Source: Dictyostelium discoideum (taxonomy: Eukaryota). Taken from it: a DNA stretch of 64,000 nucleotides. A model generated the notes under the pieces. The model did no database searches, was not told where the DNA came from, and saw nothing but the letters and a program-made list of their open reading frames with translations. The position numbers and the translations under genes were made by a program. Numbering within the stretch: position 1 is the stretch's first letter; the number at the start of each line of letters is the position of its first letter. Where the stretch lies: NCBI GenBank assembly GCA_000004695.1, contig CM000155.2:2208001-2272000 (forward strand), in the 5' to 3' direction. Shown here piece by piece: positions 3,334 to 61,064 of the stretch.

Positions 3334-5648
3334 GTCCAATGATTTTTAGTCCACATAAAGGTAATAGTGGTAGTATAGGTAATGGAAGTGATGATAATAA
3401 TAGCAATAATAATAATAATAATAGTAGCAATAATAAAAAGAATAAAAATCAAAATAGTTTAGAGAATAGTCCAATACAAAGTGTTGGTAGCATTGGTAGT
3501 GGTAATAGTGATATATTGATTGGTACAACAAATGAAAAGATGGATTTATCAGGTACACCATTAACAAAGATTAAAAAAGTTGGTGGATCAGGTGAACATA
3601 AGATTGGTCAATTATTTTCAACAGCAATATGTGGTAATGATATCACTTCAAGTATATTCTATACTGCGAGTAGTTGCACATTAAGTGCGGGTAAATATGC
3701 GCCTATCTCACTTTTGATAGTTTGTATAGTTTTATATTTATTTAGAAAGGTGTATGGTGAAGTTGGATGTGCATTACCACTAAATGGAGGTGCGTATAAT
3801 GTTTTATTAAACACAACAAGTAAGCAAATCGCATCGGTGGCAGCAGCATTGACGATGATAAGTTATGTCGCTACGGCAGTGGTTAGCGCGTCAACAGCAA
3901 TGAATTATTTACAAAACCTGTGGCAGGAATTGGATGTGTTTTGGGCGACTATTGGGCTATTGGGATTTTTCGCATTGCTGTCATTGATTGGCATAACCGA
4001 GAGTGCAGTGGTTGCATTCATTATATTCTCAATTCATATGGTGACATTGTTGATATTGGTATTTGGCGGATTTGGTATTTTTTTTTATAAACATGATTGG
4101 AGTGTATTGGTTGGCAATTGGAATGACGTTAATCCACCCGACCCCGATGGGACACTACAATGTGAACAGCAATTTTATTGGGGACAGAATTTCGCATATT
4201 GTATCTACTTTGGGTTTGGCTCAGCAATGTTGGGTGTGACAGGATTTGAAACGTCATCAAACTTTATCGAACAGCAAGACAAAGGAGTGTTTCCAAAAAC
4301 TTTGAGAAACATGTGGGCAATTGTAACGTTTTTCAATCCATTAATTAGCGTGTTAAGTCTTTGTTTCCTCGATACATGCACCATAGTCAATGCAAAGGGG
4401 TACGTATTGGCAACGGTTGCAAACGAGATATTTGGCCAATGGTTTCATATTTGGATTATAGTGGATGCAGTTTTAGTTTTGTCAGGTTCGGTTTTAACGA
4501 GTTATGTCGGCTTTGTGGGATTGGTTAGAAGAATGAGTTTGGATCGTTGTTTACCCCAATTCTTAATCGATATCAATTCATGTAGGAAAACCACTCATTG
4601 GATTATAGTATTATTCTTTTTAATTTGTTCATCACTTTATGCGATTGTTCAAGGCGCTCTATCAACATTGGAGGGTGTTTACGCGGTAAGTTTCTTGGGG
4701 GTAATGCTATTGTTTGCAGTGGGTAACATGCTATTGAAATACAAGAGATCATCATTGAAGAGAGAAATTAAAGCACCCTGGTTAGGAGTTTTCTTTGCTT
4801 CCGCGTCGGTTATATTGGGACTAATTGCAAATATCTATAAGGATCATTACATTGTTTTCTACTTTGGTATTTATTTCATGGTCACAATTTTCATTATCAT
4901 GGTAATGTTTACACGTGCCCGTTTGTTAAAGATGGTTTTATTCTTTAGTCAAATTGTAATTTGGTGGTCAGCTCCATTACGTGCAAAGGCTGCAAAATCA
5001 ATAGGTAATCAAATTAAAAATATTAATTCACAACCAATAGTTTTCTTTGCTTCAAAAGATGATACTGCTTATTTAAATAAAGCGATTCTTTATATTCGTG
5101 ATAATGAACAAACTAATTGGGTTAAAATTATACATTGTTATGATGGTCAAGATGAAGAAAATATTAATGGTAATCATCAAAATAATCATCAAAATGTTCA
5201 ATCACCACCAAATGAATCATCATCATTATTACAACAACAACAACCACAACAGCAAATAATAGAACAATCAAATAATGAAATTAAGCAAAATGGTATTGAA
5301 CATAATGATCATCATAACCAAGATGGTCATCATCATAATCATCATCATCACCATAACCACCACAATCACCACCACCATCATCATCATCATCATCATAATA
5401 TAGTACGTGAAACACATGATGATGTTGATGACTCATTCTCTCAACATGTTCAATTTTTAGATGGTTGTTATCCAAAGATTAGAATTGATTATATTAGAGT
5501 TTTTGCAAACTTTTCACCCTCAACAGTTGAAAAATTATCAATTTTATTAAAGGTACCCAAAAATTTCATGTTTATTGCGTGTCTAAAAGAAAATACAATT
5601 TTAAATATTGGTGATTTGGGTGGAGTTAGAATGATTACATCTTTTTAA
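3021..5648 (+). CDS. APC-superfamily (amino acid/polyamine/organocation) transporter-like multi-pass membrane protein with an N33 tract and a His-rich C-terminus
   Basis: Single 875-aa ORF. After an Asn-rich N-terminus with 33 consecutive Asn, there are about 12 hydrophobic helices. The first two resemble the APC motifs (…GNDITSSIFY… and …EVGCALPLNGGAYNVLLN…). The C-terminal tail contains HHHNHHHHHNHHNHHHHHHHHHH. Confidence 0.75.
3239..3340 (+). repeat. (AAT)34 trinucleotide repeat encoding an uninterrupted N33-N34 tract inside the APC-transporter CDS
   Basis: Direct reading; perfect repeat without interruption. Confidence 0.95.
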
Positions 5649-6234
5649 AAATATAAATAAAAATAAAAATAAAAATAAAAATAAATAATGAAAATATGAG
5701 ATATTTTTATTATTTTTTTTATTTTATAAAATGGGAAAAAGAGTACCATAAGTTTCTCTATCCCTATTTTTTTTTAATAAAATAATAAATTAATTATTTA
5801 TTTATATTATATATTTATTAATTAATGCCTATTTTTTTTTTTTTTTTTTTTTAAATAATTTTATCTTGAATAAAAAAAATTAAAAATAATAAAAATAATA
5901 AAAATCTTTATTTATTTGATCTTTATTATTATTTTTAATGTTACTTGTTTCGAAAAAAAAAAAAAAAAAAAAAAAAAAATCAAAACAAACTTTAAAACAC
6001 AATAAAATTTATTTTGTATGTGAGTCATAATTGAATTTTATTTTATGCAAAGATTAGGTGTAAATAAAAAAAATGAAAAAAAATAAAAAAAAAAAAAAAG
6101 TTTTTTTTTTTTATATTTAATTTAATTTTGGTTTGTGAAACCTCCAAATTTAATTTAATTTTTCAAAAAAAAAAAAAAAAAAAAATATTACATAATAAAA
6201 ATATATAAATATATTTATATACATATATAAAAGA

Positions 6235-6480
6235 ATGAGTCAAAAAGTTCAATTACATGTTTATGATCTATCAAGAGGTATGGCAAAAACGTTCTCATTA
6301 CCTTTATTAGGTCGACGAATAGATGCAATTTATCATACATCAATAGTTGTTTATGGAACAGAATGGTATTTTGGTGGTGGTATTTTAAGAGATATACCTG
6401 TAAGTACACTTTCAAAATTTTATTTTATTTTATTTTATTTTATTTTATACAACGTGTATTCTAATTCGGTGTTGTTGTTT

Positions 6481-6515
<35 letters not shown>

Positions 6516-7853
6516 GTTTTTTTTTTTTAATAGTTTCAAACTCCACATGGTCAACCATTTGAAATTTTAGAATTAGGTGAAACTGAAATACCAAAAGAAT
6601 TATTTGAAGAATTTTTAAGTGGACAAACAGATAGATTTAGAATGGATAAATATCATTTACTTGAGAATAATTGTAATCATTTCACAAATGAATGTAGTAA
6701 TTTCTTATTAGGTGTCGGCATACCATCACATATTGTAGACTTACCAAATGAAGTTATGAGCACACCATTTGGTGCAATGTTACAACCAATGATTAATAAC
6801 TTTTTTAGTCAACAAGGTTGGGGTAATACAATGGGTCCTGTAAATCAACAACAACAACAACAATTACCAACTACAGCTACAACTACAAATACTACTACCA
6901 CTACAACTACAAATACTACAACTACAATAATTAATAATAATAATAAAGTTGAAAATCATCCAAAATCTAATATAACACATAGACATTATAAAAATTCAAA
7001 TAAGATACAATTAATATTAAATAGTAAATCAGTGTTATTTGAAAAGAGTGATGTTGAAGCAGTGTTTAATAAATTAAAAGAATTTGCTAATAAAGAATTT
7101 AAAGGTAAAGAAAATGAGCAATTATTAATTACCCAATATGAAAAAGAATCTAATCAATTGAAACAAATTATGAAATCGGTCGATGTGGATACACCAATTT
7201 CAATTGAAACATTGAAATATTTCGATGGCTTATTATCGACATTCTCTGACGACCACCAATTCCCATTATTAGAAATATTAAGAATGCTATTATTAAAGAA
7301 TCAAAGTAACCAATACTACACAAATCAAAGTAACCCAATTATTTCTAATATTCTATTAAAAATTCAATCTAAAAAATTATCAAAACCATCAGAATTATTA
7401 AGTTTTAGAGTTATAAATAATTGTTTTTTTTCAAAATCTGGTATAAATTATTTATTTAATGGTAATGGTAATGATAATAATAATGATAATTTAAATATTG
7501 TTATTGAATCTACTATTGATGCATTACATAGTATGGATAAAATTTTAAAGAGAGCAGTTAGTACATTGGCTTATAATTTATCAATTCATTTATCTATTGA
7601 TAATTCAAATCATCAAGAACAAGCAATTTCATTATTAGGTGCAATTGAACATATTTTATCGGAATCTGATTTTTCAAATGAAGACCCTGAAATATCATTT
7701 AGATTATTAATGGCATTAGGTACATTAATATATTGTAATGATGATCTTGTTGAAATTTTAAAAACTTTAGATTTTGATTTTAATAAATATTTAAATTCAA
7801 AAGAATTAAAAATTTCACAATTAATTAAAGAAATTCAATCATTATTAATTTAA
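6235..7853 (+). CDS. PPPDE/DeSI-type (DUF862) thiol peptidase domain protein with a Leu-rich C-terminal extension; join(6235..6399,6534..7853)
   Basis: Exon 1 encodes MSQKVQLHVYDLSRG…IYHTSIVVYGTEWYFGGGI…DIP, the His-containing half of the PPPDE domain. The intron has GTAAGT at 6400 and (T)n…AATAG ending at 6533. Exon 2 continues in frame with …PHGQPFEILELGETE…LENNCNHFTNECSNFLLG, the catalytic Cys-containing half. Both exon boundaries are phase 0 and the frame matches the downstream ORF. Confidence 0.8.
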
Positions 7854-8173: not shown

Positions 8174-9210
8174 ATGATTCAAAATAAATCAACCCCACTA
8201 ACTGAATTTAAATTTACAAATAATAATTTCGAATCGACATCTTTAGAAGTAGAACCTATAAATGGAATTGAAAATGGTTTACTAATTAAGAATCTATTAT
8301 CTCATGAAGAATGTAGTTTAATACAAAACTCAATTTTTAACAGTTTGGACAATAACGAATTTGTCAAACATGTAAGTGTAGTTTGTAGTTAATAATTAGT
8401 AGTTACATTTAATAATATATTAATAAAATAAAATTAAAATTTATTTTTATTTTCTTTATTTTTTATTTTTATTTTTATATTTTTAACACAAACACAAACA
8501 TACATTCACTACTATATATATAATAGGGGTTGAGAATTCATAAAAATTCTGAAGATTTTGCAAATATTATTTATGGTAGAATTGAAAATTGTTGTGTCAA
8601 AAAATTAAAAAGAAAAAACCCTTCAAATTCAAATGAACAATTGGAGTGGAATATTGACTCTGGTATGTTTTATTTTCTTTCCCTAATTTATAATTATTAT
8701 TATTATTATTATAATTATAATTATTATTATTATTATTATAATTATAATTATTATAATTATTATTATTATAATTATTGTAATTATTATAATTATTGTAATT
8801 ATTATTATAATTTTTTTTTTATATGCTTTTTAATATTAATTATTAATAATTCTATTTTTCTAAAAAAAAAAAAAAAAAAATTTATAGTTTCACCAAAATT
8901 TAGATTTATTAGATATAATGAAGGGGAATTGTTTCCAAACCATACCGATGGTGAGGTGAAAAATGAAAATAAAATGTCATTTTTTTCAATTTTAATATTT
9001 ACAAATGATTGTGGTGTTGACTTTAAAGGAGGTGAATTTAGATTCTTTAAAAAAGATAATAACTTACAATTAGAGGAAATTACAAGAGTTGAACCCAAAC
9101 GAGGAATGGCATTGATATTTGATCACACAATTATTCATGACTCTAATATAATTACATTTGGCCAAAAACAAACTATCAGATCAGATTTAATATATAGATT
9201 ATCTAATTAA
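8174..9210 (+). CDS. 2OG-Fe(II) oxygenase superfamily protein; join(8174..8371,8527..8662,8888..9210)
   Basis: Three exons. Exon 1 ends …EFVKH before a GTAAGT donor. Exon 2 runs from AATAG| to a G|GTATGT donor in phase 1. Exon 3 follows TTTATAG| and gives VSPKFRFIRYNEGELFPNHTDGEV… KRGMALIFDHTIIHDS…TIRSDLIYR. This is the H-x-D…H iron triad plus the R-x-S 2-oxoglutarate site. Intron 2 (8663-8887) is an in-frame, stop-free (TAT)n tract, so the six-frame track fuses it as poly-Tyr. Confidence 0.7.
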
Positions 9211-9483
9211 ATTATCTTAAGATTTTATAATAGTAATAAATTTCGATTATGTTGAAATAGTTTAAACTATAAGCCTGTTTTGTCTAAAAAAAAAAAAAAA
9301 TAATATGAGAATGTAAATTTATATATATACTTTATATATTTGTTTATATATATATATATATTACACATAATCATACATACATATAATATAATATAATATA
9401 TGATATAAAATATATATATAATATAAAATATATATATAATATATAATATATTAATATAATATATATTAAAAAAAAAGAAAAAA

Positions 9484-11038: not shown

Positions 11039-11284
11039 TAAAAACTTACTAAAAAAAAAAAAAAAAAAATAATAATAATATTAGGTTATAATTATTTTTT
11101 AAGGATTGGGTTGGAAAGTGAAAATGATCTTTTGGTTTACCAAACACACAACTCACACACCAAATTAAAAAAATTTTTAAAAAATTATGAAATAGATATA
11201 TTAATTTTAGATTTTTACATCCCAAAAATTTACAAACATCATCCTTCCACCCAAAATTCAAAAATCAACAAACTTGTTTTATAA
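10813..11284 (+). CDS. stress-responsive dimeric alpha/beta-barrel (Dabb, PF07876-like) protein, paralog 1; join(10813..10978,11085..11284)
   Basis: Exon 1 encodes MEESSNKSLEHIVFFMLKPFEN…SERSK and ends at a G|GTAAT donor in phase 1. Exon 2 follows TTAG| and gives GYNYFLRIGLESENDLLVYQTHNSHTKLKKFL… That matches the Dabb pattern: LEHIV…LKxK, then G(Y/F)…F.SxEDL..Y..H..H. Total 121 aa. Confidence 0.7.
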
Positions 11285-11415
11285 AATCAATTAAATAAAA
11301 AAAATTATTAACTAATCTCAAAATAGCTAAAATAGGAAAAAAATAGAAAAAATAAAAAAAAGTACTTGAAATTTTATTGATTATTATAAAAATAAAAAAA
11401 TACTTTATTTGTTTA

Positions 11416-11446
<31 letters not shown>

Positions 11447-11565
11447 TTTTATTTTTTTATTTTTTCATTTTCATTTTTTTTTTTTTTTTTTTATTTTATT
11501 TTATTTCATAATCTTGTGGACAACATTCCCCTGTTTTAATAAATAAATAAATTAATAAAATAAAA

Positions 11566-11780
11566 ATGTCAGAACAATCATTAGAACATATTCTCTTTAT
11601 GCAAATAAAAGAAGATACAAGTGATACAGATATTAAAAGACTAACTGATTGTATGGAAGAACTTAAACAATTACCAGGTGTTTTAAACATTTCATTTGGT
11701 AGAAATTTTAGTGATAGAAGTGGTGGTATGTAGATATATTGATAGATAGATAAATATATATAGATATTTATTATCCACAT

Positions 11781-11831
<51 letters not shown>

Positions 11832-12068
11832 TGGTTACACCTCACTGCATTTTCGTATCATTTCAACTGGTTATTCTTACTTTTCATTTTATTTAAAATA
11901 GGTTATAACTGGGGTTATCGTGTATTATTCGAGAAAAAATCAGATCTTGATTTCTATGGACCACACCCAATTCATGAAAAATTAAAGGCAATTCTTAATG
12001 AAGTTAAATCTGGTCCACCACTTGTTTGTGACTATTTGGTTCCAAAATTCCCATTCAACAAATATTAA
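11566..12068 (+). CDS. stress-responsive dimeric alpha/beta-barrel (Dabb) protein, paralog 2; join(11566..11725,11902..12068)
   Basis: Exon 1 encodes MSEQSLEHILFMQIKEDTSDTDIKRLTDCMEELKQLPGVLNISFGRNFSDRSG and ends at a G|GTATGT donor in phase 1. Exon 2 follows AAATAG| and gives GYNWGYRVLFEKKSDLDFYGPHPIHEKLKAILNEVKSGPPLVCDYLVPKFPFNKY. The intron position and phase are identical to paralog 1. Total 108 aa. Confidence 0.75.
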
Positions 12069-12706
12069 GATAATTTATTGAAAAAAATAAAATAATAAAT
12101 AATAATAATAATTAATAATAATAATAAATATTAAATAATAAAAATAATAATAAATAAAAAACAATAAATAAAAAAAAAAAATTAAATAAAGATTATTATT
12201 ATAATTATTGATAATATAATTATTAATTTTTTATATTATCAACACAAATCATTGTCATTGTAAATGATAAAAACAAAAAAAAATAGAAATAATAATATTA
12301 AAAATAATAATAGTAATAATAATAATAATTTAATATTAATAAATAGAAAATAAATATTTAAAAAATTTAGATCAATAATTTATCAATAAAGTGACTCATA
12401 ATTTATTTTTAAATATATAAATATAAATATAAATTTAAAATGAATATTATTAATATAAATAAAATTTTTAATAATATCTGCAATCATCTTTTAATTAAAC
12501 CGATATGTTTTTTTTTTTTTTTTTTTTTAAAAAATAATTTTAATTTTATTTATTTTTATTTTCTTTTTGATGGTGATTCCATCAATAGATTATTTGTATT
12601 TTATTTAATATTATTTTTAAAAGACTTAAAATACAAATAATTGAATTTGTTATTTTTATTTAAAATTTTTTTTTTATTTTTATTTTTCTTTTATCATATT
12701 GGTATT

Positions 12707-13813
12707 TCAATCATTAATATTAATATTATAACCAATATTATTTTGTAAAGCTTTTTTGTAAATATAATTTGCTGTAGCAACATCTTGAATTGCAGTGCCT
12801 GATGATTTATAAACGGTTATAGATTTTGATGTGGTGGTGGTGGTTTGTTGTTTGTATTTACCAGAAACTACATCACTTAATTTTCCAAGTATATGAGATT
12901 TAGTGATAATATTTTCTTTGTTAATTGGAATAAATAATTCACCAGATACCATACAACTATTTACATCATCTACAATTAGATTTGAATTTGAGATGGTGAA
13001 TGAATCTAATTCACGATTGGTTGGTCTACTACTACCAACTGCACAAATTAACAATGGCTTTTTCTTGAAATCTCTTTGTTTTTCTGATAAAACCTCATGA
13101 CCATTAAAGAGTGGTTCATTTGATGATGTAGCTGTTACTATAATGTCTGCTTCTAAAAGATAACGATTTATAATATCTTTATCGTCACCAGCACCAGTAG
13201 CAGCACAATAGTTGAATTCTACAGCATCATTATTATAGTTATTTTCATTTTTAAGTTGGATAATTAGTTTATCAACATTTTCTTTTGATCTTGATGAAAT
13301 GTAAACTTTTTTAATTGTTGGTTTTAATAATAAAATCATTTCGATATGTAATTGTGCTTGAAGACTTGAACCAAATACAAAAATGGTTTCGGGTGATTCG
13401 GTTGCTAAATATTTCACAGAAATTGCACTACCAGCTGCAGTTCTCGCTCCAGTAATATAGGTTGCACCAATCACTGCATTTGCCAAACCTGTCTCTATAT
13501 CGTTCAATATAATTGTTGCTGGTACAGTTGGTAATCCTTTATTGGCATTGTTTGCAAAGGTTCCTACAATTTTAATGCCAACAGATTCATCCACTACTAA
13601 AGATGGTTTAAAATATAAATTCCCAACAAGTTGTTTTTTATTTATTGGTTCATTTGAATCTTGTTGTGGCTGTGTTTTCTCTACTGGTAAGATTATTCTT
13701 TCTGGACAAACTACTTCCTCTTTTGATTCTTTAATAAAAACCTGTTCATTTATATCAATTACCTCTTTCAAAGATATCAATTTTTTAACATCAGATTCTT
13801 TAATAATTAACAT
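12707..13813 (-). CDS. ornithine cyclodeaminase / mu-crystallin (ketimine reductase) family protein
   Basis: 368-aa ORF containing …GIKIVGTFANNA…ATYITGARTAAGSAISVKYLA…ETIFVFGSSLQAQLHIE…AVGSSRP… This is the Rossmann/OCD-Mu-crystallin signature (ITxxRTAAxSA and GxGxQA). Confidence 0.85.
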   Translation of the reverse strand: MLIIKESDVKKLISLKEVIDINEQVFIKESKEEVVCPERIILPVEKTQPQQDSNEPINKKQLVGNLYFKPSLVVDESVGIKIVGTFANNANKGLPTVPATIILNDIETGLANAVIGATYITGARTAAGSAISVKYLATESPETIFVFGSSLQAQLHIEMILLLKPTIKKVYISSRSKENVDKLIIQLKNENNYNNDAVEFNYCAATGAGDDKDIINRYLLEADIIVTATSSNEPLFNGHEVLSEKQRDFKKKPLLICAVGSSRPTNRELDSFTISNSNLIVDDVNSCMVSGELFIPINKENIITKSHILGKLSDVVSGKYKQQTTTTTSKSITVYKSSGTAIQDVATANYIYKKALQNNIGYNININD

Positions 13814-48020: not shown

Positions 48021-50387
48021 TTATTTATTAAGAATAATTTACATGAATTATGGTCATTATTAAACTTTTTATTACCAGATGTTTTTTCATCATCAGATGA
48101 TTTTGATAAATGGTTTGATTTAGCAAATAATACAGAGAATCAACAAGAGGTTATTGATAAATTACATAAAGTTTTAAGACCATTTTTATTAAGAAGAATT
48201 AAAACTGAAGTAGAGAAATCATTACCACCAAAGAAAGAGATTAAATTATTTGTTGGTTTATCAACGATGCAAAAAGAATGGTATAAAAGATTACTTTCAA
48301 AGGATTTGGATGCAGTTGTTGTTGGAGCAAAAGGTAATACAGGTCGTGTTAGATTATTGAATATTTGTATGCAATTAAGAAAGGCATGTAATCATCCTTA
48401 CCTTTTCGATGGTGCAGAGGAAGAACCATACACAACCGGTGAACATTTAATTGACAATAGTGGAAAGATGGCATTATTGGATAAACTATTGAAAAAGTTG
48501 AAAGAAAGAGGATCAAGAGTTTTAATCTTTTCACAAATGTCGCGTATGTTGGATATTTTGGAGGATTATATGTTGTATCGTGGTTATAAGTATGCAAGAA
48601 TCGATGGTTCTACCGAATCGATCGTTAGAGAGAATTCAATTGAAAATTACAATAAACCAGGTTCAGACTTATTTGCATTCCTTTTAACCACCAGAGCCGG
48701 TGGTCTTGGTATCACTTTGAATACAGCCGATATCGTTATCTTGTTTGATAGTGATTGGAACCCACAAATGGATCTTCAAGCACAAGATCGTGCCCATCGT
48801 ATTGGTCAAACTAAACCAGTGACAGTCTACCGTTTTGTGACAGAGAATTCAATGGAGGAGAAAATGGTAGAGAAAGCAGAAATGAAACTTCAATTGGATG
48901 CATTGGTAATTCAACAAGGTCGTCTCGTTGAGGCAAATAAAAATGCAAAACCTGAAGAACTCTTGGCAATGCTTAGATTTGGTGCTGATGATATCTTTAA
49001 GAGTAAATCATCAACCATCACCGACGAGGATATCGATTCCATTCTCAAGAAAGGTGAAGAGAAAACTGAACAACTCAATAGCAAAGTTAAGGATTTAGCC
49101 TCCAATCCATTGAAATTCCAATCCGATGGTAATCTATACATGTTTGATGGCGTAAACTATAAGAATTCTCATTCCAGTGCAGGCTATTGGGCAGAGACAT
49201 TGAAACGTGAGAGAAAAACAGTCGCAGGTACAGTGGCAGCCGATGAAGAAATCGCTCCTGCAAAACCAGTGGTAAAGAGAGAAAGACGTTTCAATAAACC
49301 AAAGCAGACACCAATCTATGATTTCCAATTCTATCCACCAAGATTAACTCAACTCTATGAGAAAGAGAATGAAGCCTACAATAAAAAGGTGGAATGGTAC
49401 GACCAAAAAGATAAAGGTGAACTTCCAGAGGAAGAGGAGGAACCAGACTTTGGTGATCTATCAAAGGAGGAACAAGATCTCAAAGAAAGATTAATTAAAA
49501 CCGGTGGTTTTGGTGATTGGTCAAAAACTGATTTCCGTACTTTTATTCGTGGTTGTGAATTGTATGGTCGTAAGGCTTATCAAAGTATCGCTGAAGAGGT
49601 TCAAACTAAAACTGAAAAAGAGGTTCAACAATATTCTCAAGCATTTTGGAAAAAACACTCTGAGGTTGCCGATCATGAGAAATTGGTTGCACGTATTGAA
49701 AAGGGTGAAGAGAGAATCATGAAATATAAAGAAACTCAAGACTCTTTAAATTATAAGATCAACAAATATAAAAATCCTTGGATTGAATTAAAGATTCAAT
49801 ATGGTTTGAAAAAGAATAAAAACTATAACGACGAGGAGGATATATTTTTGGTTTGTATGTGCCATCGTTTGGGTTATGGTGCCTTTGAAGAATTGAAAGA
49901 GGAAATTAGAAAATCACCACAATTCCGTTTCGATTGGTTCATTCAAACTCGTACTTGTCAAGAATTGAAAGCTCGTGTCGATCAATTACTAAAATATATA
50001 ATCAAAGAACATCAAGAGGAAGTGGAAGCTGCAAAAGAAGCAGAGAAAAGAAAGAAAGAAAAAGAGAAATTAAAATTGGCAGCCTCTGGTGTCACCGCCT
50101 CTAAAGCAAAGACTGAATCTCCAAATAAAACACTTGGTAAGAGAAAAGATGCTCCACCATCAAAACCTCCTGCTAAACCATCTAAAGCTTCTGCTAAATC
50201 AAAACCTGCTCCAAAATCAAAGACTTCCACAACTACAAAACCTACTACTACAAATGGTAGAGGTAAAAAGAAACCTGTTGAAGAAGAAGAACCAATGGAA
50301 GAGGAAGAGGAAGAAGAAGAAGAGGTTGAAGAGGAAGAGGAAGAAGAAGAAGTTAAAGTTCCACTCAAAAAGAGACAAGTTAAATAA
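46360..50387 (+). CDS. isw: ISWI-type SNF2 chromatin-remodeling ATPase (SNF2_N, helicase C, HAND-SANT-SLIDE); join(46360..47167,47255..47535,47639..47860,48033..50387)
   Basis: It is colinear with human SMARCA5/ISWI: [49 protein letters not shown]; [13 protein letters not shown]…LLITGTPLQ|[18 protein letters not shown]; [12 protein letters not shown]…SGKM; [12 protein letters not shown]; [20 protein letters not shown]; and SANT/SLIDE-like [29 protein letters not shown]. Three introns have GTATGT, GTAAAT and GTAAGT donors. Intron 3 contains a roughly 130-bp (ATT)n tract. Phases are consistent. Total 1221 aa, with an acidic E/K-rich tail. Confidence 0.9.
47905..48030 (+). repeat. (ATT)n about 40 units, intronic (ISWI intron 3)
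   Basis: Direct reading; nearly perfect with two single-base interruptions. Confidence 0.9.
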
Positions 50388-50614
50388 AAAAAAAAAAAAA
50401 AAAAATTAAATAAAAAAAAATAAATACAATCTTAAAAATTCAAACAAAACAATGTATCATTTTTCGTTTATAATTGTTTAAAGGGTTAAGTTTTGTTGTT
50501 TTTTTGTTTTTAGCAGGAATTGTTTAGTTTTTTAAGTCGGAAAGCAAAAAATTCTTTGGAGCCAAATAATTAAAAAAAGGTTAAAAATCGATATTAAAAT
50601 TTTTTTTTCAACAT

Positions 50615-50686
50615 GTTTCGATAGCTCAGTGGAAGAGCAAGCGACTGCAAATCGTTAGGTCGCCAGTTCAATCCTGGTTCGGAACT
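50615..50686 (+). tRNA. tRNA-Cys (anticodon GCA)
   Basis: The 72-nt sequence GTTTCGATAGCTCAGTGGAAGAGCAAGCGACTGCAAATCGTTAGGTCGCCAGTTCAATCCTGGTTCGGAACT folds as a cloverleaf. It has a 7-bp acceptor stem (one G-U pair), A-box TAGCTCAGTGG, anticodon loop CTGCAAA with GCA at positions 34-36, and B-box GTTCAATCC. A TTTTT Pol III terminator follows 6 nt downstream. Confidence 0.8.
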
Positions 50687-50785
50687 TTCTTTTTGGGGAA
50701 ATCAATCTTGTTATTGTTTCATATTAAAAAGTTTTCTTTTTGAAATTTTAATATGTTATTAGATTCTTTTTTAAAATTTTGGTTT

Positions 50786-51081
50786 GTTAGTTTGTTTGAA
50801 ATCTTCCCCAATCTCATAGGAATAATAGCACACCAATTATGGAAGATAATCTGTCACAAATTGTTCAACACTGATGAAAGCAAACCAGAGCCAAAATTCG
50901 AACAAAAGGTCATAGAAACAGAATTACTAAATCTCATCGAAACTGAAAAATTCATCACACTAAAGAAAATCAAACACGACGAAGCAATACTAAAAAATAC
51001 AAATCAAGATCTTCACAAATACAAATTCAACAAAGCCTGGCAAACCCCAGCAGCTCCGAACCCTCTTCCAATTTAAGTAGT

Positions 51082-51144
<63 letters not shown>

Positions 51145-51261
51145 GTTTAAAAAATTTAATACAATTGAATAATAAAAATAAAACCGTTTAACAAACACCG
51201 CCGAAAAGACACAAGGACATTCCTTGAAGGTCTGATCACAGGTAAAAAAAAAAAAAAAAAA
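50786..51261 (+). mobile_element. 5'-truncated non-LTR retrotransposon fragment (TRE3-like by position) flanked by a 14-bp target-site duplication
   Basis: The repeat-unit flank sequence …aaattttggtttgttagtttgt is interrupted at 50785 and resumes at 51262. The 14-mer GTTTGTTAGTTTGT is duplicated at 50772-50785 and 51262-51275. The insert carries an open, relatively GC-rich frame from its first base (…IFPNLIGIIAHQLWKIICHKLFNTDESKPEPKFEQKVIETELLNLIETEKF…AWQTPAAPNPLPI*) that stops 9 nt before an (A)64 tract. A further 110 bp follows, then a terminal (A)18. The insertion point lies about 100 bp downstream of the tRNA-Cys 3' end, which is the characteristic TRE3 integration distance. Confidence 0.5.
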
Positions 51262-51299
51262 GTTTGTTAGTTTGTGAGATATTTATTTTTATTAAATTT

Positions 51300-51651
51300 T
51301 TAATTTCCACCTCTTAATACAAAATGGAGTGTGGATTCTTTTTGAATGTTATAATCTGATAAAGTACTACCTTCCTCTAATTGTTTACCAGCAAAAATAA
51401 ATCTATGTTGATCTGGTGGAATACCTTCTTTATTTTAATCTTACTATTAAATGGACTGTGGATTCCATTCGAATGTTATAATATAATAAAGTATGAACAT
51501 CCTCTAATTGTTTACCTGCAAAAATTAAAATTTGTTGATCTGGTGGAATACCTTCTTTTTCTTGAATTCTAGATTTAACCTTTTCAATAGTATCTGAATT
51601 TTTAACTTGTAATTCGAAAGTTTTACCAACTAATGAAACATAAATATACAT
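51300..51651 (-). pseudogene. decayed head-to-tail di-ubiquitin-like remnant (UBL copy 1 plus a C-terminal half-copy)
   Basis: Minus-strand ORF 51430-51651 encodes [73 protein letters not shown], which is ubiquitin-like but lacks the GG end. Immediately 3' and out of frame, 51300-51429 encodes …[42 protein letters not shown]. That is a second, more canonical ubiquitin C-terminal half ending RGG-N. Confidence 0.5.
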
Positions 51652-52171
51652 GTTGCTGTTGTTATTTTTATAATAATAATAATAATAATTAAAGTGTTTT
51701 ATAAAATAATTTGTTGGTTTGGTTTAATTGAAAATAAAAAAAAAAAAAAACCTTTTAATTTTATAAATAAAAATTTATCTCCATTGTTATTACTACTCTT
51801 GCAAGAGACATTCAAAAAAAAAAAAAAAATCTTAAATTTGTAAGCATGACTCATAATTAAAAAAAAAAAACAAATTTCTCCAATTTTCCAAATTTATTGA
51901 GGGAACTCTAAAAAAAAAAAAAGGCAAAATTTAATAAATTGGGTACCTCGACAAAAAAAAAATATAAAATTAAAAGTAATCATTTATTATTTAATTAATG
52001 TAAATGACCTAATAATGATTATAATCAATCACTTTTTCTAAATAAAATTTTTTTATTATCACTTGTTGAAAAGAGATTACAAAAAAAAAAAAAAAAAAAA
52101 AAATTAAAAAAAAAAAAGAAAAATTATTTACTTAACCACGATAAAAAAAATAAAATAAAAATTAAACCAAA

Positions 52172-52252
52172 CTAAATCAAATCAAATCAAATCAAATCAA
52201 ATCAAATCAAATCAAATCAAATCAAATCAAATCAAATCAAATCGAATCTAAT
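52172..52252. repeat. (AAATC)n pentanucleotide microsatellite, about 16 units
   Basis: Direct reading of aaatcaaatcaaatc…; the last units are mutated (cgaatctaatcaaattaaatt). Confidence 0.9.
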
Positions 52253-53063
52253 CAAATTAAATTAAACAAAATCAAAAAAAAAAAAAAAAAAAAAAAATTA
52301 ATTATATAAAAAAATAAAATTGTATAAAAACAAACTATACTTACTGAACCTACAAATTTTTATTAATCATAGAAAGAAATTTTTATGTTATCAAATATCA
52401 TTATTTTTTTTTTTTTTTTTATTTTTTTTTTTTTAATATGAATTTGTAATTTTATTAAAATGTTATTTTAAAAAATGTGGTTGCTAAATTAATTGAAACT
52501 TTTTTAATATAAAAACTTATTGTGTTTTTTTGTGTTTATTTGATTTTTTTGTTTTTATTTTTTTTCTCACCTAAATAAAAAAAAAATAAAAAATAAAATA
52601 AAAAATTAATGAAAAAGGTCGAACACCGGTTGTAGGTTTTGTTGCATCTGTAAAATCAATTATTTATTCTTATAATCAATTATTCATTCACAATCACCGG
52701 CCTCATCAAATTCATTTACATGACCCCATTAGATTTCAATTTGTTTAATCAGATTATTTAGATATGTACATATCACAAAAAGGAATTCCAAAGGTGTATA
52801 ACAAATCACCAGTACATCAATTATCTACATTACTATCATTTTTATAAACATTTTACCATTTACTCCCTTATTTCTGTGATATAGAATTTAGGTTACAATC
52901 AATTACGATAATCCATCATTATGAATTATAATTCCACGTCTATATTTAAATTTTAATTTTTTAATATGAATTTGGATTCTTTTTTTTTTAAATTTTGGTT
53001 AGTTGGTTTGTAAGATTAAAAGGAAATTAATAAACTAGAAGATGTTTAGTTTTATTTAATTTT

Positions 53064-53297
53064 TTAATTTCCTCCTCTTAATCTAAGTGATAAATTGATT
53101 GTGGAACCCGGTTGAATTTTTAATTCTCCTAAAGTACGACCATTCTCTAATTTTTTACCTAAGAAAGATAATGTTTGTTGATCAATTGGAACACCTTCTC
53201 TTCCTTCAATTACAGCTTTAACCCTTTCAATAGTATCTGTTTCTTTAAATTCGTATGAGACGGCGGAATTACCAACTTTTTTAACAAAAATTTGCAT
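53064..53297 (-). CDS. divergent ubiquitin/NEDD8-like protein with a -RGG-N C-terminus (intact copy within the repeat array)
   Basis: 77-aa ORF: [77 protein letters not shown]. It has a beta-grasp ubiquitin fold (MQIFVK start, I44-equivalent context, LRLRGG) with a one-residue C-terminal extension, as in ubiquitin-like modifier precursors. It is about 45% identical to ubiquitin. Confidence 0.6.
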
Positions 53298-53856
53298 GCT
53301 GTTGTCGTTTCAATAATTATAATAAAAATAATAATTATAATTATAAAAATAAAAATTATAAAAATAATAATAATAATAAAAATAATAATAATAATAATAA
53401 CAATAATAATAAGGTTTTATTTATTATTTATTATTTATCATTACCATTGAAAATAATTATAAACCTTTTTCTATTTTTTTTTTTTTTTAAAATTTTTTAA
53501 AAAATTACTAAAAAGAGTTAATTTCATTTTTTTAATTTTTAGTCATTATTATGTGAAAAATAATTTTTATTTTTTATTTTTGTGGGATAATAATAAAATT
53601 TTTTAAATTAACTTTATCAATAGGCATGATTCATAATTTTTTGTGGTGTTGGAATTAAAAAAAAATAAAATGCGAGCGATTACTTTTTGAGGTTTTAAAA
53701 AAAAAGTTGCAAACAACTAACCATTGCCTCATAAATTACTTTTCACCGTTTTAATTCAAAAATTATAATATCTGCAAGATCAACCTAAAAATTTCTAACA
53801 AAATAAAAAATTGGAAATTTTTAAAATATTTAACTCCATTATTTCAGTGATAGAGA

Positions 53857-53940
53857 GTTTAGGTTACAATAAATATTATTCATCATGAATAATATACCGC
53901 GTTTAATAATTCTTCATCTGTATTTGATTGTAACCTAAAC
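53857..53940. repeat. perfect 14-bp inverted repeat (GTTTAGGTTACAAT / ATTGTAACCTAAAC) separated by 56 bp, inside repeat block P
   Basis: The left arm at 53857-53870 and the right arm at 53927-53940 are exact reverse complements. The loop itself contains a near-palindrome, TATTATTCATCATGAATAATA. Degraded versions occur in the other P blocks (52880-52905 and 54770-54830). Confidence 0.7.
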
Positions 53941-54451
53941 CCTCTACCCCACTTACAAGTATATCTAACTTTTAAAATAGAAATTAATTAAAAATTAAAT
54001 AATTAATTAATTGAAAAAAGAGTATCAAGTTAAAGACACTCTATCCGCTACGAATAAAATAAATTTTAAAAATAAAAAAAAAAAATATTATTTTTGAATT
54101 ATTTTTATATTTTTTTTATATAATTTTTATATTAATAGATAAATAACCTTTTCTTAAACAAAATTTCACTACAACTATATGGCCAATGATATCTGGTAAA
54201 AGAAAAATTTTTTTTTTTTTTTTTAAAAATTTTAATTCAAAAATTAATTTTCTGTATAGATTATTTTAAAATACAAGTTTTCAATTAAATAGCAACATAT
54301 CTATTAATAACTTTGGTGATGAGGTTAAATTTTAAAATTTTATTTTTTAATATGAATTTGGATCCTTTTTTTTAAAATTTTATTTTGTTTGTAAGATTAA
54401 AAGGAAAATAATAAACAAGAAGATGTTTAGTTTTATTAAATTTTTTATATA

Positions 54452-54660
54452 AAACATCTTAATTTGGATTTTAAACTGACTGTGGAATCTGGATAAATTT
54501 TATATTAGTCTAAAGTACGACCATATTTGTTGATCTGTTGGAGTACCTTCTTTTGTTGAATTTTAGCTTTAACCTTTTCAATAGTATCTGTTTCAGTAAC
54601 TTGGTATGTGCTGGTTTGTATACCAACTATCTGGACAAAAAGTTTCATGTTGCTGTTGTT
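54452..54660 (-). pseudogene. ubiquitin-like pseudogene with an internal deletion (UBL copy 3 of the array)
   Basis: The minus strand reads MKLFVQIVGIQTSTYQVTETDTIEKVKAKIQQKK|VLQQINKYGRTLD*. The N-terminal half matches UBL copy 2 and ubiquitin (TETDTIEKVKAKIQ). The frame then collapses and the GG terminus is lost. The 3' flank (block F) is conserved. Confidence 0.5.
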
Positions 54661-55233
54661 GTTTTAAAATTATAATTATAGGTTTTTATAAAAATAAAAA
54701 ATAATTTGAAAAAAAAATAAAAAATTGGAAATTTCAAAAATATAATTTAAATACCTTATTTCAGTGATTGGATGTTTAAGTTACAGGTGATGAATTAAAT
54801 ACCTCATTTAATAATTAGTCATCTGTATTTGATTATAACCCTATGAACATTGGAAAGAGTGCATTCATTAATTCAAGTTAAAGACACTCTGTTCACTATG
54901 AATAAAATAAGTATTAAAATAAAAAATAAAAAATTAAAATTAAAAAAATTATTAATTGAGCTCAATTCGAATAATAATTAAGATACTATAGTAATATTTA
55001 ATAACTTTTTTTTTTTTTTTTTTAATATTATTTGCAAACCCAAAAAAAAAAAAAAAAAAAAAAAAAAAATAAATAAATAAACTCATTTTATAAACAATAT
55101 TGACTTTTGGTGTCCATAAAATAACTGGAAAGATTTAAAAAAAATTAAAAATGTGGAATGAGATCAATCTATTACTATATTTAAAATTAAAAAATTAAAT
55201 TGGAATTGTGCGATAAAAAATACCCTCTAAAAT

Positions 55234-55278
<45 letters not shown>

Positions 55279-56368
55279 TCATTTACATTAATTAAACAAT
55301 CTTTATTTAGGTTATTTTTAAAAGTAAATTCAAACTATTAATAAAAAGATAAAATCGGATTTCGATAATTTTAATTTTATAAATATATTTTTTAGTATTG
55401 TTTTTTTTTTTTTAAGTTATTTTATATTATTTACAACTAACATTTTTTTTTTTTTTTAAGTTATTTTATATTATTTTATATTATTTTTATATTATTTTTA
55501 TATTATTTTTATATTATTTTTATATTAATAGATAAATCACCTTTTCTTAAACAAAATTTCACTACAATTATATGGCTAATGATATAAATCTAATCAAAGA
55601 AATTTTTTTTTTTTTTTTTTTTTTAAAAAATAATAGTTTTCGTTTTAAATTAAAAATTAATTTTCTGTATAGATTATTTTAAAATACAAGTTTTCAATTA
55701 AATAACAACACATCTATTACCAAGTTTGTTAAAAAATTACCAAGAAATAAATTAAAAAATATTTGTGGTTATAGTGTGTATGTAAATGCTTAAAAAAAAA
55801 AAATAAAGCTAAGGAAAAAAAAAAAAATCTACAAACCACACATATTTTAACACACTCACACACACACGCATACACACTAAAAACTATTTTTACTATTGAA
55901 ATATATAAAGACATAATCAAAAATAACAACAACTACCATTCAAGATGAATCGTAATTTTTTTTTTTTTAAAAACGTCTTCCACATTTTATATGTTAAGAC
56001 TATTTAATATATATTTTATTTAATTAATTTTAAAATTTTTAAAATAATGGATTATATTATTGTTATTTAAAGGAAAAAAATAAATAAATAAATAAAAATA
56101 ATAGTTAAAAATAAAAAACAAATAATAAAGTAATAATAAAAAAAAAAAAAAAGGTTATTTTATTTTAAACAATTCGATTGAATAAAATCAATTTTCCTTA
56201 AAAAAAAAAATAAAAATAAAAAAATAAAAAAAAGAATTAAATTTTATAGAATCCTATAAAAATTTTGTAATATTATTATTTATTTTTTAATTTATTTATT
56301 TAATTATTTATTTTTTTTCTTATTTTTAAAAAAACTAAAAAATAAATAAAAAAAAAAAAAATAATTGA

Positions 56369-56404
<36 letters not shown>

Positions 56405-56408
<4 letters not shown>

Positions 56409-58712
56409 GAAATATAAATAAAAAATTATTTTACTTTTTAATTCAATTAATAACAATTCTAATTGTTTTATCAGATGGTAAATATTTAAATTATATTTTT
56501 AATATTTTATATGATTTTTTTATTAACTATTATTTTTTAAAAAGATTCATATAATAGTTTATTACCACTTGAAAAGGATATAGCAGTTATAATTAGGGAT
56601 TTATCACCACAAACCAATCCAGATTTTGAAATTGATAATCCAAATCGTGTTATAAAAGGGTTAGTTAAGGATCAATTGAATGAAGAAGATCGTAGTCCAA
56701 TTTATTGTTGTGGAGATGATCATGCACCAAATATCGATAGAAATAGATTTGTAATACATAATCAAAGTACATTTTATAGTTGGTTTCATAATCAAAAGGA
56801 TGTTAATATTGTAATTTCCAAATCATTAGTATTCACTAGAAATGTTACATCTGATGATCCAAGAATTTACTCTTATGAAAGTGATAATTTCTTTCCAATT
56901 GATAAGATGGGTTTTGAAGCAGATTCATACAATGGACCAATAAAAAAGAATCAATGGAAGGATAGATGGGGATTTCCAAGAAATTTCCATTTCTGCTTAG
57001 AGTTACATGCTTCATTTTTCTATATTGGTGGTGAATTATTCAGTTTCAAAGGTGATGATGATGTTTGGGTATTCATTGATAATCGTTTGGTATTGGATTT
57101 GGGTGCACCACATGATGTGTCTGGTCAAAATGGTCAAGGATCTGTATATTTGGATAATTTAGGTTTAGAGAAGAGTAAGAGTTACAATTTCGATTTCTTC
57201 TATTGTGAGCGTCATACAACCGATTCTCATATTATGGTTGAGACAAGTATAGATTTCAAATGTAAATACTATGACTATTGTGGTGTTTGTGAAGGTATGG
57301 GTAAATGTTGTAATCCTTCAGAGTGTTATGGTAGTTTGCCTGCATGTGGCCATTTCGAATGTCCAGGTTTAACTGATATCGCTCCAAATGTTGATTGGCG
57401 TTATCATTGTAAAGTTGTAGTTCCAAATTGTTCCCTCTCTGATACATTCTGTGTTAAACATCAATGTGACCCTGATAGTAAACAATGTGTACCATCCACT
57501 GATTATCAACCATGTCAAGGTAAATCCAATAGTTCTTGTATCGAAGCCCGTTGTGATGATAAAATGGGTGGTTGTTACTTAAAGAGTAAACCAAAGGATC
57601 AATCTAAAAATGATACAACTTGTTATCGTGAAACTTGTAATGAAGATACTAGCACTTGGGAGTATAAAGCACTTTGTGAAGATGATTCTGATAAATGTAT
57701 TTCAAAGAAATGTATTCCAAATTCTGGTTGCTCCAGTAGCGTTGTTGATTGTAATGATAACAATCATTGTACCATCGATAGTTGTTCAAAGGATACTGGT
57801 TGCATTCATGACCCAATTGAAAATTGTGTACCATGTGTTGAAGGCAATAAATGTTCAGAATCCAGTGATAAATGTCAACAATTGGAATGTAATCCATACA
57901 ATAGTACAACGGAATGTATTGATCGTACTAAAAAGAATTGTGATGATTCAAATGCTTGTACTATTGATACTTGTAATGGTGAAAGTGGTGAATGTGAAAA
58001 TACTCCAAAACAATGTCTTGCTAAAAATAAATGCTCCACTGCACGTTGTAACTCTAAAACAGGCCAATGTGATAATATCTATCATTGTGATGATGGTATA
58101 CTTTGTACTCTCGATAAATGTTCAGAAAATGGTACTTGCTATTATGAAGCAAATCCATGTGATGATGGTGATCAATGTACAATTGACATTTGTTTGAATA
58201 CTCTAACTGAAACTGGTGGTTGCTCTCACAGTGCTCGTGTTTGTGAACCAAAAAATTCATGTTTTACAAGTCATTGTGATAAAAAGTTGGGTTGTGTTCA
58301 AACTCCAATTGAATGCCCAGTTGAAGCTTTCTGTTTAATTAGTTTCTGTGATAATTCAACAAAGAAATGTATGACCGCTGATAGACCATGTATTCCTGAT
58401 GATCCACGTTGTCAATATGGTGTTTGTGATAACGATACCAAAGCTTGTATTTTTAAAGACTATGATCCATTACCATTTAAATGTCAATCTGCTGCTGTTA
58501 AAGCTGCCGTTGGTGTTGGTGCTGGTGCTGCAGCTGGTATTGCCATTGGTGGTGCAATTGCATTAGGTCTTGCTGCTTTTGGTGGTAAACGTGGTTATGA
58601 TGCTTGGAAATCCTCAAGAGATAATCAAATCCAAACTTCTTCTGAAAATCCATTATATAATCCAAATCCAAATCAAGGTGATAATCCACTTTATGCTGCT
58701 AATAATTCTTGA
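56405..58712 (+). CDS. PA14-domain, Cys-rich-repeat type I membrane glycoprotein (psi / prespore-cell-inducing-factor-like family); join(56405..56477,56545..58712)
   Basis: Exon 1 is a signal peptide, MGNINKKLFYFLIQLITILIVLSD, ending at a G|GTAAAT donor in phase 1. Exon 2 follows AAAAAG|. It has a PA14-like region (…FHFCLELHASFFYIGGELFSFKGDDDVWVFIDNRLVLDLGAPHD…YNFDFFYCERH) and then about 20 Dictyostelium-type Cys repeats (C.IDTC…, …CDDG..CT.D.C). It ends with a Gly/Ala-rich transmembrane helix (AAVGVGAGAAAGIAIGGAIALGLAAFGG) and a short tail, KRGYDAWKSS…NPLYAANNS. Total 746 aa. Confidence 0.75.
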
Positions 58713-58717
58713 TAAAG

Positions 58718-58749
<32 letters not shown>

Positions 58750-58834
58750 TATTTGTTTTTTTTTTTTAAAAAAAAAATCATTTCATTTTAAAGATATATA
58801 TATTTATGTAAAAAAAATAAAAATAAAAATAAAA

Positions 58835-58878
<44 letters not shown>

Positions 58879-59209
58879 TTGCTCTATTTTAAAATTTAAT
58901 TTTTATTTTATTTTATTTTAATATTTATTTTAGATTTAAAACAAATTTATAAATAATATTTTTATATTTGATAATCGTTTAGGTTTAAAATAAAGTTTTA
59001 AAATAATATTTTTTTTATTTTTTTTTATTTTTTTTTGCCTCCAACTGATAATAAAATTCATACTTTTTTTTTTTCATTTTCTTTTCATTTTTTTTTTTTT
59101 TTTTTTTTTTTTTTCATTTCTCAAAAATTTGTAAAACTAAATATATTTGTATTTTGTATTTATATATGTATATTTAAAAAAAAAAAAAAGGGGAAAGATA
59201 TAAGAAAGA

Positions 59210-60332
<1,123 letters not shown>

Positions 60333-60535
60333 AGAATCTTTTTTTTTTTTTTTGTTTTTTTTTTTTTTTTTCAATAATAAAATTTATTTATTCCAAACAA
60401 AAATATTTTTAATATTATTTTAATTGTATATTCATATCTAAACTACATTAATTAAAATTTATCTTAACAAAAAAAAAAAATAAAAATAATAAAAAAAAAA
60501 AAAAACGAAAAAAATACTCTAACTTGAAAACTGAG

Positions 60536-60543
60536 TCCCATAA
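60536..60543 (+). promoter_or_regulatory. DUSE (Dictyostelium upstream sequence element, TCCCATAA) 63 bp upstream of U3 snoRNA copy 1
   Basis: An exact match to the [A/T]CCCA[C/T]AA consensus reported upstream of Dictyostelium small ncRNA genes. An identical element sits at 62739-62746, also 63 bp upstream of U3 copy 2. Confidence 0.6.
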
Positions 60544-60598
60544 TTTAATTTTAAAAAATGAACAAAATAAAAGAAAGTTTTTTTTATTTTGAAAAGTT

Positions 60599-60809
60599 AT
60601 GACCAAACTCTTAGGATCATTTCTAGAGTATCGTCTATTAAAATTATTCATCAATAATTTTTCCTCTTTCACAGCTAGGATGATGATACACACTCACTAT
60701 ACGAAAGCGTGAAACCGTTATTATCAAATGATTCGTTTATTTGTTATTAACATTGATGACCGTCTAATTCAGGGATGAATTGGTTGTATGGTGGGATTCG
60801 TACTGGCTC
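60599..60809 (+). ncRNA. U3 small nucleolar RNA, copy 1
   Basis: About 211 nt with U3 boxes in canonical order. Box A'/A is CUCUUAGGAUCAUUUCUAGAGUAUCG (human UUUCAGGGAUCAUUUCUAUAGUGUG; yeast CAUAGGAUCAUUUCUAUAGGAAUCG). Box C' is GGAUGAUGAUA. Box B is AAGCGUGAAACCG (human GAGCGUGAAGCCG). Box C is ACAUUGAUGACCGUC (human CCAUUGAUGAUCGUUC). It is followed by a T5 run. The 3' box D is a variant (UACUGG rather than GUCUGA), so the 3' end coordinate is approximate. Confidence 0.7.
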
Positions 60810-61064
60810 TTATTTTTAATTAATTTAAAGAAAAACAAATATGTAGTTATTAATAATTTTTATGCTTTAAATGAAATGTAGTTATTAATAATTTCATAGA
60901 AAGCAAAATAATATATTTAAAAAAAAAAAAATCTATTTTATTAAAAAAAAAAAATCTATTTTATTAAAAAAAAAAAATATCATCTTTTTCTCAATTTTTA
61001 TTTTTATTTTTTTACTTTTTTTAATTTGATTCTTTTTAATTATTAATTAATTTTACACTACAAA

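Follow-up and report, generated by a model that had tools for sequence, protein, structure and literature searches.

The stretch of DNA considered here, referred to below as the window, spans 64,000 nucleotides of chromosome 6 of Dictyostelium discoideum AX4 and has a G+C content of 22%. One of its landmarks is a tRNA-Cys(GCA) gene on the forward strand (50615..50686; called by ARAGORN and matched by the Rfam tRNA model with 61.4 bits), which lies beside an ISWI gene, an arrangement conserved in D. cf. discoideum and D. firmibasis. Another is an array of ubiquitin-like (UBL) units, the first of which, together with a host 3' flank designated the F block, occupy 51276..51651 on the reverse strand, as judged by open reading frames (ORFs) and paralogy. 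Between the tRNA-Cys gene and the 3' end of this array sits an insert of 466 bp (50796-51261, forward strand), which starts in the middle of an ORF. It is very likely (probability about 0.94) a 3'-end fragment of a TRE3-type retrotransposon, i.e., one without long terminal repeats (non-LTR), brought downstream of tRNA-Cys by one insertion. Reports of TRE3 elements targeting the regions downstream of tRNA genes go back to the 1990s.

All parts of the insert lie on the forward strand. Its first four nucleotides, TTGA (50796..50799), have no counterpart in the element consensus or in the target and are interpreted from the sequence as filler, i.e., putatively untemplated nucleotides at the 5' junction; homology to longer copies of the element begins at 50800. 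From there, a 5'-truncated C-terminal fragment of ORF2, starting just downstream of the zinc knuckle, runs over 92 codons to a TAA stop codon (50800..51076, with the stop at 51074-51076). It is followed by the 8-nt spacer GTAGTAGT (51077..51084), shared with other copies, an internal tract of 51 adenines (A51; 51085..51135 by sequence count), which forms part of the 3' untranslated region (UTR), and a 3' tail module of 108 bp ending in ...GGTCTGATCACAGGT (51136..51243), which is conserved across copies and species. The terminal poly(A) of 18 residues (A18; 51244..51261) abuts the right copy of a 14-bp duplication. Counted from the end of the tRNA-Cys gene, the duplication starts after 95 nt and the element after 109 nt. 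A first-pass annotation, made from the letters of the stretch, had drawn the same general layout: its distance of about 100 bp from tRNA-Cys and its terminal (A)18 hold, but its other dimensions needed correction, namely an insert of 476 bp (466 bp as measured), an ORF ending 9 nt before the A tract (8 nt), an (A)64 tract (A51), and 110 bp between the two A tracts (108 bp).

Self-BLAST of the insert against the window detected no second copy, the unfiltered run being flooded by A-tract noise, and a repeat search of 50300-61000 returned mostly low-complexity families. At the insert, no terminal direct repeats beyond the 14-bp duplication and no LTRs were found. Pfam recognized no family in the 98-aa fragment from the window or in the zinc-knuckle ORF, and the Rfam scan returned tRNA only, plus a chance sR52 match at E=0.08.

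The duplication consists of two exact copies of GTTTGTTAGTTTGT on the forward strand, the left one at 50782..50795 and the right one at 51262..51275. It is not extendable on either side, and the motif occurs exactly twice in the window vs. 0.14 occurrences expected at up to one mismatch. The right copy had been placed correctly before, while the left one, formerly put at 50772-50785, actually lies 10 nt further to the right. Two paralogous blocks, 52910-53213 and 54306-54572, both following a ubiquitin-like unit on its 3' side, can be aligned over the junction with the empty site as reconstructed and contain the motif once each, in agreement with the earlier statement that other F-block copies do not show two copies of it. 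The orthologous sequence of D. cf. discoideum (L006; ...GGCTGGTTGT|AAGATTAAAAG...AAGATGTTTAGTTTTATT...) also has a single motif and is devoid of the element. These single-copy sites, along with the duplications of 12-16 bp belonging to other copies of the family (ATATTTTAAAAT, GAAAAAGGTTCTTTTA, and TTAACCTTTTTTAT), bear out the proposal that the 14-mers represent a target-site duplication.

The identity of the element is revealed by its relatives, which were found by a protein search with the 93-aa conceptual peptide, after which their genomic loci were fetched. All matches of the peptide are short 'hypothetical proteins' from D. discoideum and D. citrinum; likewise, the protein searches with the window peptide and with the reverse transcriptase (RT) returned only 'hypothetical protein' labels and no subfamily name. 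Longer relatives carry the same frame upstream through CKICGHLFRDPYSHLFTLC, a zinc knuckle of the CX2CX9HX4C type, and the longer copies at two loci, L004 in D. discoideum and L010 in D. citrinum, are 97-100% identical to the window copy over the shared part. At L004, a tRNA-Phe gene is followed, after 82 nt, by an ORF of 519 aa (5637-7196) with an RVT_1 domain (E=5e-37); the next ORF (7187-7777, 196 aa) includes the zinc knuckle and has a C-terminus identical to the window fragment. The same arrangement recurs at L010 next to tRNA-Gln, where the C-terminus of ORF 8272-9351 is identical to the fragment. Since the longer copies extend the frame through the zinc knuckle into RVT_1, the fragment represents the 3' end of a non-LTR retrotransposon, and the first-pass assignment to a 5'-truncated retroelement was right. 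The RT relatives of the L004 copy are Dictyostelium and other non-LTR RTs, some of them with Exo_endo_phos. The TRE3 features encountered in the family include an RT followed by a zinc finger in ORF2 (L004) and a poly(A) end without LTRs (A18 in the window, A10-A24 in other copies); the published order of TRE3 ORF2 is APE-RT-ZF, and the element ends in oligo(A) (PMC5006619).

Targeting was assessed in the window and at six other loci (L002, L003, L004, L005, L010, and L011). At five of these six, a tRNA gene on the same strand lies 66-135 bp upstream of the first element: tRNA-Leu at L002 (103 nt from the tRNA end to the first element base), tRNA-Arg at L003 (~135 nt) and L005 (~72 nt), tRNA-Phe at L004 (82 nt), and tRNA-Gln at L010 (66 nt). 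In the window, the element and the tRNA gene are both on the forward strand. By definition, a TRE3 element integrates 40-150 bp downstream of a tRNA gene, with which it shares its orientation (PMC5911963), and the TRE3-type targeting suggested in the first-pass annotation fits this definition. Clear external B boxes are present at several of the loci (GGTTCGATGCTC, GGTTCGATTCTAG, and CCAATCGAATCCC). Overall, a TRE is present at 61% of the tRNA genes of D. discoideum (PMC5006619).

Some of these loci harbor more than one fragment. Stacked or tandem fragments were found at L002, L004, and L005, and tandem TREs are reported to arise by sequential hits at one tRNA gene (PMC5006619). The tandem at L004 (5620-8494) is made up of a long copy with the RT and a short one, separated by a 23-bp filler and A15, and one 16-bp duplication (GAAAAAGGTTCTTTTA) surrounds both. 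Downstream of one tRNA-Leu gene at L002 (6911-7244), three tail modules of unequal divergence are stacked, which suggests successive very short insertions of related families. At L011, another A22 run with a flank that is nearly duplicated (AATGTTCAACCTTTTGCAT / ATGTTTAACCTTTTTTAT; 2479-2500) immediately precedes the short copy, and an inverted second copy of the element is located ~560 bp from it (3493-4543, reverse strand), no tRNA gene being detected in 5.5 kb.

A number of observations weigh against the view of the insert as a tRNA-targeted TRE3 fragment. In the window, 43 pairs of exact, non-simple direct repeats measure 14 nt or more and lie no further than 1 kb apart, vs. ~7 in first-order Markov nulls; the 14-mer alone is weak evidence of an insertion, because such repeats are common in this repeat-rich stretch. 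A segment of ~27 bp (AAGATTAAAAGRAAATTAATAAAC..G, between two AAGAT repeats) present at the junction in both AX4 paralogues (near 53012-53040 and 54420-54450) and in the L006 orthologue (12779-12806) is missing from the focal flank at 50795/51276. The host flank thus continues across the junction, as had been claimed, but not seamlessly, and the pre-insertion sequence is imperfectly reconstructed. At L011, no tRNA gene was detected in the 2.5 kb upstream. Reading of the sequence downstream of the AX4 tRNA-Cys gene revealed no clear external B box: the weak B-box-like motif AATCAATCT (50701..50709, forward strand) shares 6 of 9 positions with the internal B box of the gene, GTTCAATCCTG (~50666-50676, forward strand), and is not convincing as an external one. 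Clear external B boxes (GGTTCGAT.. / GGGGTTCGACCCCC) are present at other loci and in D. firmibasis, where the canonical GGGGTTCGACCCCC lies ~40 bp after tRNA-Cys (L007, 11432-11445) vs. only the weak AATCAATCT at 50696-50711 of AX4. Furthermore, every copy of the family that was recovered has lost its 5' part, up to a point within or after the RT, so neither the apurinic/apyrimidinic endonuclease domain with which TRE3 ORF2 begins nor ORF1 nor the -1 frameshift leading into ORF2 was seen in them. The locus of P0134, probed for a full-length copy, again yielded a 5'-truncated one, and PF03372 was seen only in more distant Dictyostelium RT relatives (e.g., P0149, 39% identity). Finally, the placement within TRE3 is based on targeting, orientation, domain order, and the poly(A) end, not on a match to a TRE3-A/B/C/D consensus.

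Taken at face value, the abundance of direct repeats would permit the 14-mers to be a chance or host-repeat feature, with the fragment having arrived by recombination or gene conversion, and the UBL array around the insert is indeed recombinationally dynamic between isolates. Still, the 14-mers abut the element start (within 4 nt) and the terminal poly(A) exactly, the motif is single in the paralogues and in the orthologue, which speaks against a chance repeat, the orientation and the distance to the tRNA gene follow the family rule, and other copies bear the same signature. In only 1 of the 43 repeat pairs, that of GTTTGTTAGTTTGT, does the second copy directly follow 10 or more consecutive A without being A-rich itself. 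What makes the pair convincing is that a retroelement fragment ending in poly(A) lies exactly between its two copies, and an arrival by recombination or gene conversion is considered extremely unlikely.

The 3' end of the element is organized in the same way throughout the family: in all eight aligned copies, the end of the ORF is followed by a short spacer, an A tract, a 108-bp tail ending in GGTCTGATCACAGGT, and another A tract. The spacer is GTAGTAGT in the window, in both L004 copies, and at L003 and L011; at L010 it is shorter by 1 base, and L002 and L005 have other short spacers. Elsewhere in the family, the internal A tract varies in length and is shorter than in the window. Its length varies even at the focal locus, with A51 in AX4 (51085-51135) vs. 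A37 in L001 (GCA_054883475.1; 3333-3369), a difference that reflects either homopolymer instability or an assembly artefact. Otherwise, L001 and AX4 are distinguished by 1 substitution in 6.3 kb, G>A at 51276, the first base after the right duplication.

The internal poly(A), by implication a peculiarity in the first-pass annotation, is hence a canonical, length-variable constituent of the family. It could in principle mark a two-step origin, in which a first fragment ended in this poly(A) and a second one, composed of the 108 bp and A18, was later inserted there with an all-A, and therefore invisible, duplication. Stacking at one tRNA gene is real, as exemplified by the three tail modules of L002, the tandem fragments of L004 and L005, and the tandems reported in PMC5006619. 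Nevertheless, the common order is retained in 8 of 8 copies, including long RT-bearing ones in two species, and one 14-bp duplication brackets the whole unit. Because all eight copies share the order of the tail, there is no sign of two events, and the two-step origin is judged very unlikely.

The tail is predicted to fold into a 3'-terminal stem-loop of modest stability (51197..51243, forward strand; minimum free energy -15.7 kcal/mol, z=-2.58) with the predicted inner hairpin CAAGGA-CAT-TCCTTG at 51212-51226; covariation is limited to 1 compensated pair in 7 sequences. It is presumed that the tail may act as a cis element for recognition by the RT or for the initiation of reverse transcription, by analogy with other LINEs and with the C module of the TRE5-A 3' UTR, which is modular, with B and C modules before the oligo(A) (PMC5911963). 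The combination of a variable internal A tract with a 108-bp tail is not described in PMC5911963 or PMC5006619, a coverage that does not extend to the primary TRE3 descriptions. A literature search on the tail sequence, on Tdd-3, and on DDB_G0292938, the gene model overlapping the insert (see below), found nothing relevant.

Among the known systems, TRE3 (TRE3-A, -B, -C, and -D; L1-like clade) resembles the window element in the location 95-109 bp downstream of a tRNA gene, in co-orientation, in the RT with a C-terminal zinc knuckle, in the poly(A) end, in frequent 5' truncation, and in repeated hits or stacking at one tRNA gene. The distance in the window falls within the published ranges of all four subfamilies (14-228, 34-188, 14-305, and 49-285 bp; PMC5006619), and nothing contradicts membership. 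TRE5-A (DRE) belongs to the same superfamily and follows the same ORF2 domain logic, but TRE5 elements are inserted ~50 bp upstream of a tRNA gene and run opposite to it, and they are excluded by the downstream, co-oriented position of the window element relative to tRNA-Cys. Skipper-2 (DGLT-P) likewise occupies sites downstream of dictyostelid tRNA genes (PMC5006619). However, it is an LTR element of the chromovirus type with an integrase and without poly(A), located 8-23 bp downstream in D. discoideum; Skipper-2, or an LTR retrotransposon in general, is excluded by the poly(A) end, the grouping of the RT with non-LTR RTs, and the absence of detectable LTRs. The 5'-truncated mammalian L1 insertions share the signature of target-primed reverse transcription, namely the poly(A) end, a duplication of ~14 bp, the truncation itself, and a short filler at the 5' junction; they differ in lacking tRNA-gene targeting and in having a 3' end without a conserved tail after an internal A tract.

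The structure is best explained by a single event of target-primed reverse transcription of a non-LTR element of the LINE type, which would have taken place at the tRNA-Cys gene bound by RNA polymerase III (Pol III), downstream of the gene and in its orientation; the Pol III complex would be recognized via the B box, as inferred from the literature. Primed at the poly(A)/tail at the 3' end of the RNA, reverse transcription would have come to a stop or been resolved after ~445 nt, so that the copy would have taken in the whole 3' UTR (spacer, variable A tract, 108-bp tail, and poly(A)) but no more of ORF2 than its final 92 codons. Staggered cleavage of the target would have given rise to the 14-bp duplication, and 4 untemplated nucleotides may have been added at the 5' junction. 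The fragment is inert, being without RT, endonuclease, or a promoter of its own.

The point at which copying would have ended is shared, within ~6 nt of one consensus position, by three independent short copies: the window copy (50800), L002 (6607), and L011 (~2519), which have different flanks and different target-site duplications. This corresponds to 3 of the 8 mapped 5' ends, or ~3 of 12 when protein-only evidence is counted, in a small sample ascertained with a query beginning at this very position. The near-common end could signify that the ~465-nt unit is a discrete short retrotransposition unit, stemming from a subgenomic RNA, due to an internal start or processing site of full-length elements, or from a strong RT stop, and repeatedly mobilized in trans. 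This is unlikely, given that other copies end at many other positions (65, 125, 340, ~1760, and ~1870 nt further upstream) and that the 4-nt filler at the window junction fits ordinary end-joining. A 'short lineage' was rejected, since the three short copies are not each other's nearest relatives: in pairwise comparison, the window copy is 5.8-8.1% divergent from the other short ones (and L002 8.5% from L011) vs. 0.3% from a long D. discoideum copy. The shared end suggests a hot spot of truncation, or a short RNA made recurrently, rather than a short lineage that propagates itself. It is quite doubtful that the TRE3-type family as a whole prefers one sequence-defined 5' end, lying ~445 nt before the tail's 3' end (50800 in the window) and set by an internal transcription start, an RNA-processing site, or a strong RT stop. 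If true, the element would recurrently make a discrete short unit, similar to a short interspersed nuclear element (SINE) and consisting of the ORF2 tail and the bipartite 3' UTR.

Divergence was counted over 388 comparable positions. Within the species, the window copy diverges by 0.3% (1/388 nt) from the long copy L004a and by 0.8% from L004b; the closest D. citrinum copies diverge by 1.6-2.3% and the older ones by 5.8-11%. AX4 and L001, two D. discoideum assemblies that represent essentially one strain lineage, both have the element at the site; a third assembly of the species, L008, ends inside the ISWI gene and is uninformative about the site. In D. cf. discoideum L006, the corresponding F-block junction is empty, and in D. 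cf. discoideum L009 and D. firmibasis L007, the tRNA-Cys gene beside ISWI is kept, the element is absent, and the UBL array is much reduced or absent. Since the element is absent in the two D. cf. discoideum isolates and in D. firmibasis and is only 1/388 nt from L004a, the insertion is young and specific to the D. discoideum lineage. The comparison supports the earlier description of a datable insertion.

The same tRNA-Cys gene in L006 is accompanied by other extra DNA (11270-12565). A different, poly(A)-ended insert of 170 bp with the duplication TTTAGGGGTGGG lies ~60 bp downstream of it. On the upstream side, ~900 bp of additional DNA ends 48 bp before the gene and includes a T60 run and a duplicated AAGTCTTTTTTTTCAAAAAAAAGAAATAATG of ~31 bp; this material looks like one or more TRE5-type insertions.

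The truncated ORF2 has entered the AX4 annotation as the gene model DDB_G0292938 (50753..51076, forward strand), a 'hypothetical protein' of 107 aa to which the ORF is 100% identical (P0001). Its ATG and first 14-16 codons derive from the host flank, and the remainder is the C-terminus of the retroelement ORF2; relatives share only the element-derived part, their N-termini being unrelated. The model is a spurious chimeric ORF with an ATG borrowed from the flank by accident. A genuine host gene, e.g., a domesticated retroelement-derived peptide, would be in keeping with the intact 107-codon ORF with an ATG, annotated in AX4 and in a second assembly. However, the youth of the fragment, 1/388 nt away from another copy, accounts for the intact frame, the N-terminus is flank, homologues elsewhere gained unrelated N-termini by the same accident, Pfam found no domain in the fragment, and the locus is absent in sister taxa, which makes a host gene extremely improbable. 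The short 'hypothetical proteins' P0002-P0010 in new annotations of D. discoideum and D. citrinum are retroelement debris of the same kind.

Regarding the host context, the T-rich run TTTCTTTTT directly after tRNA-Cys (50687..50695, forward strand, by sequence reading) is probably the Pol III terminator of this gene, as expected from general Pol III biology. The UBL array is located between tRNA-Cys and a PA14/Dicty_CTDC gene, and the orthologous gene in L006 encodes two ubiquitin domains (PF00240). The number of units is very variable among close relatives (window, 51299-54680; L006, 12800-16700; L009, 9950-11300; and L007), with almost no array left in D. firmibasis and one D. cf. discoideum isolate. 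In AX4, the first units (51299-51651) appear disrupted, with a 73-aa ORF only.

As a whole, the insertion is a routine instance of known TRE3 behavior and has little consequence for biology beyond a mis-annotated gene. DDB_G0292938 and P0002-P0010 deserve flagging as retroelement debris, and the hypervariable A tract within the 3' end of the family (A51 vs. A37) can confuse assembly and annotation. The locus is also a clean marker of a recent, lineage-specific TRE3 insertion, and the independent hits on the same tRNA-Cys gene in D. cf. discoideum illustrate the repeated use of one safe-haven site.

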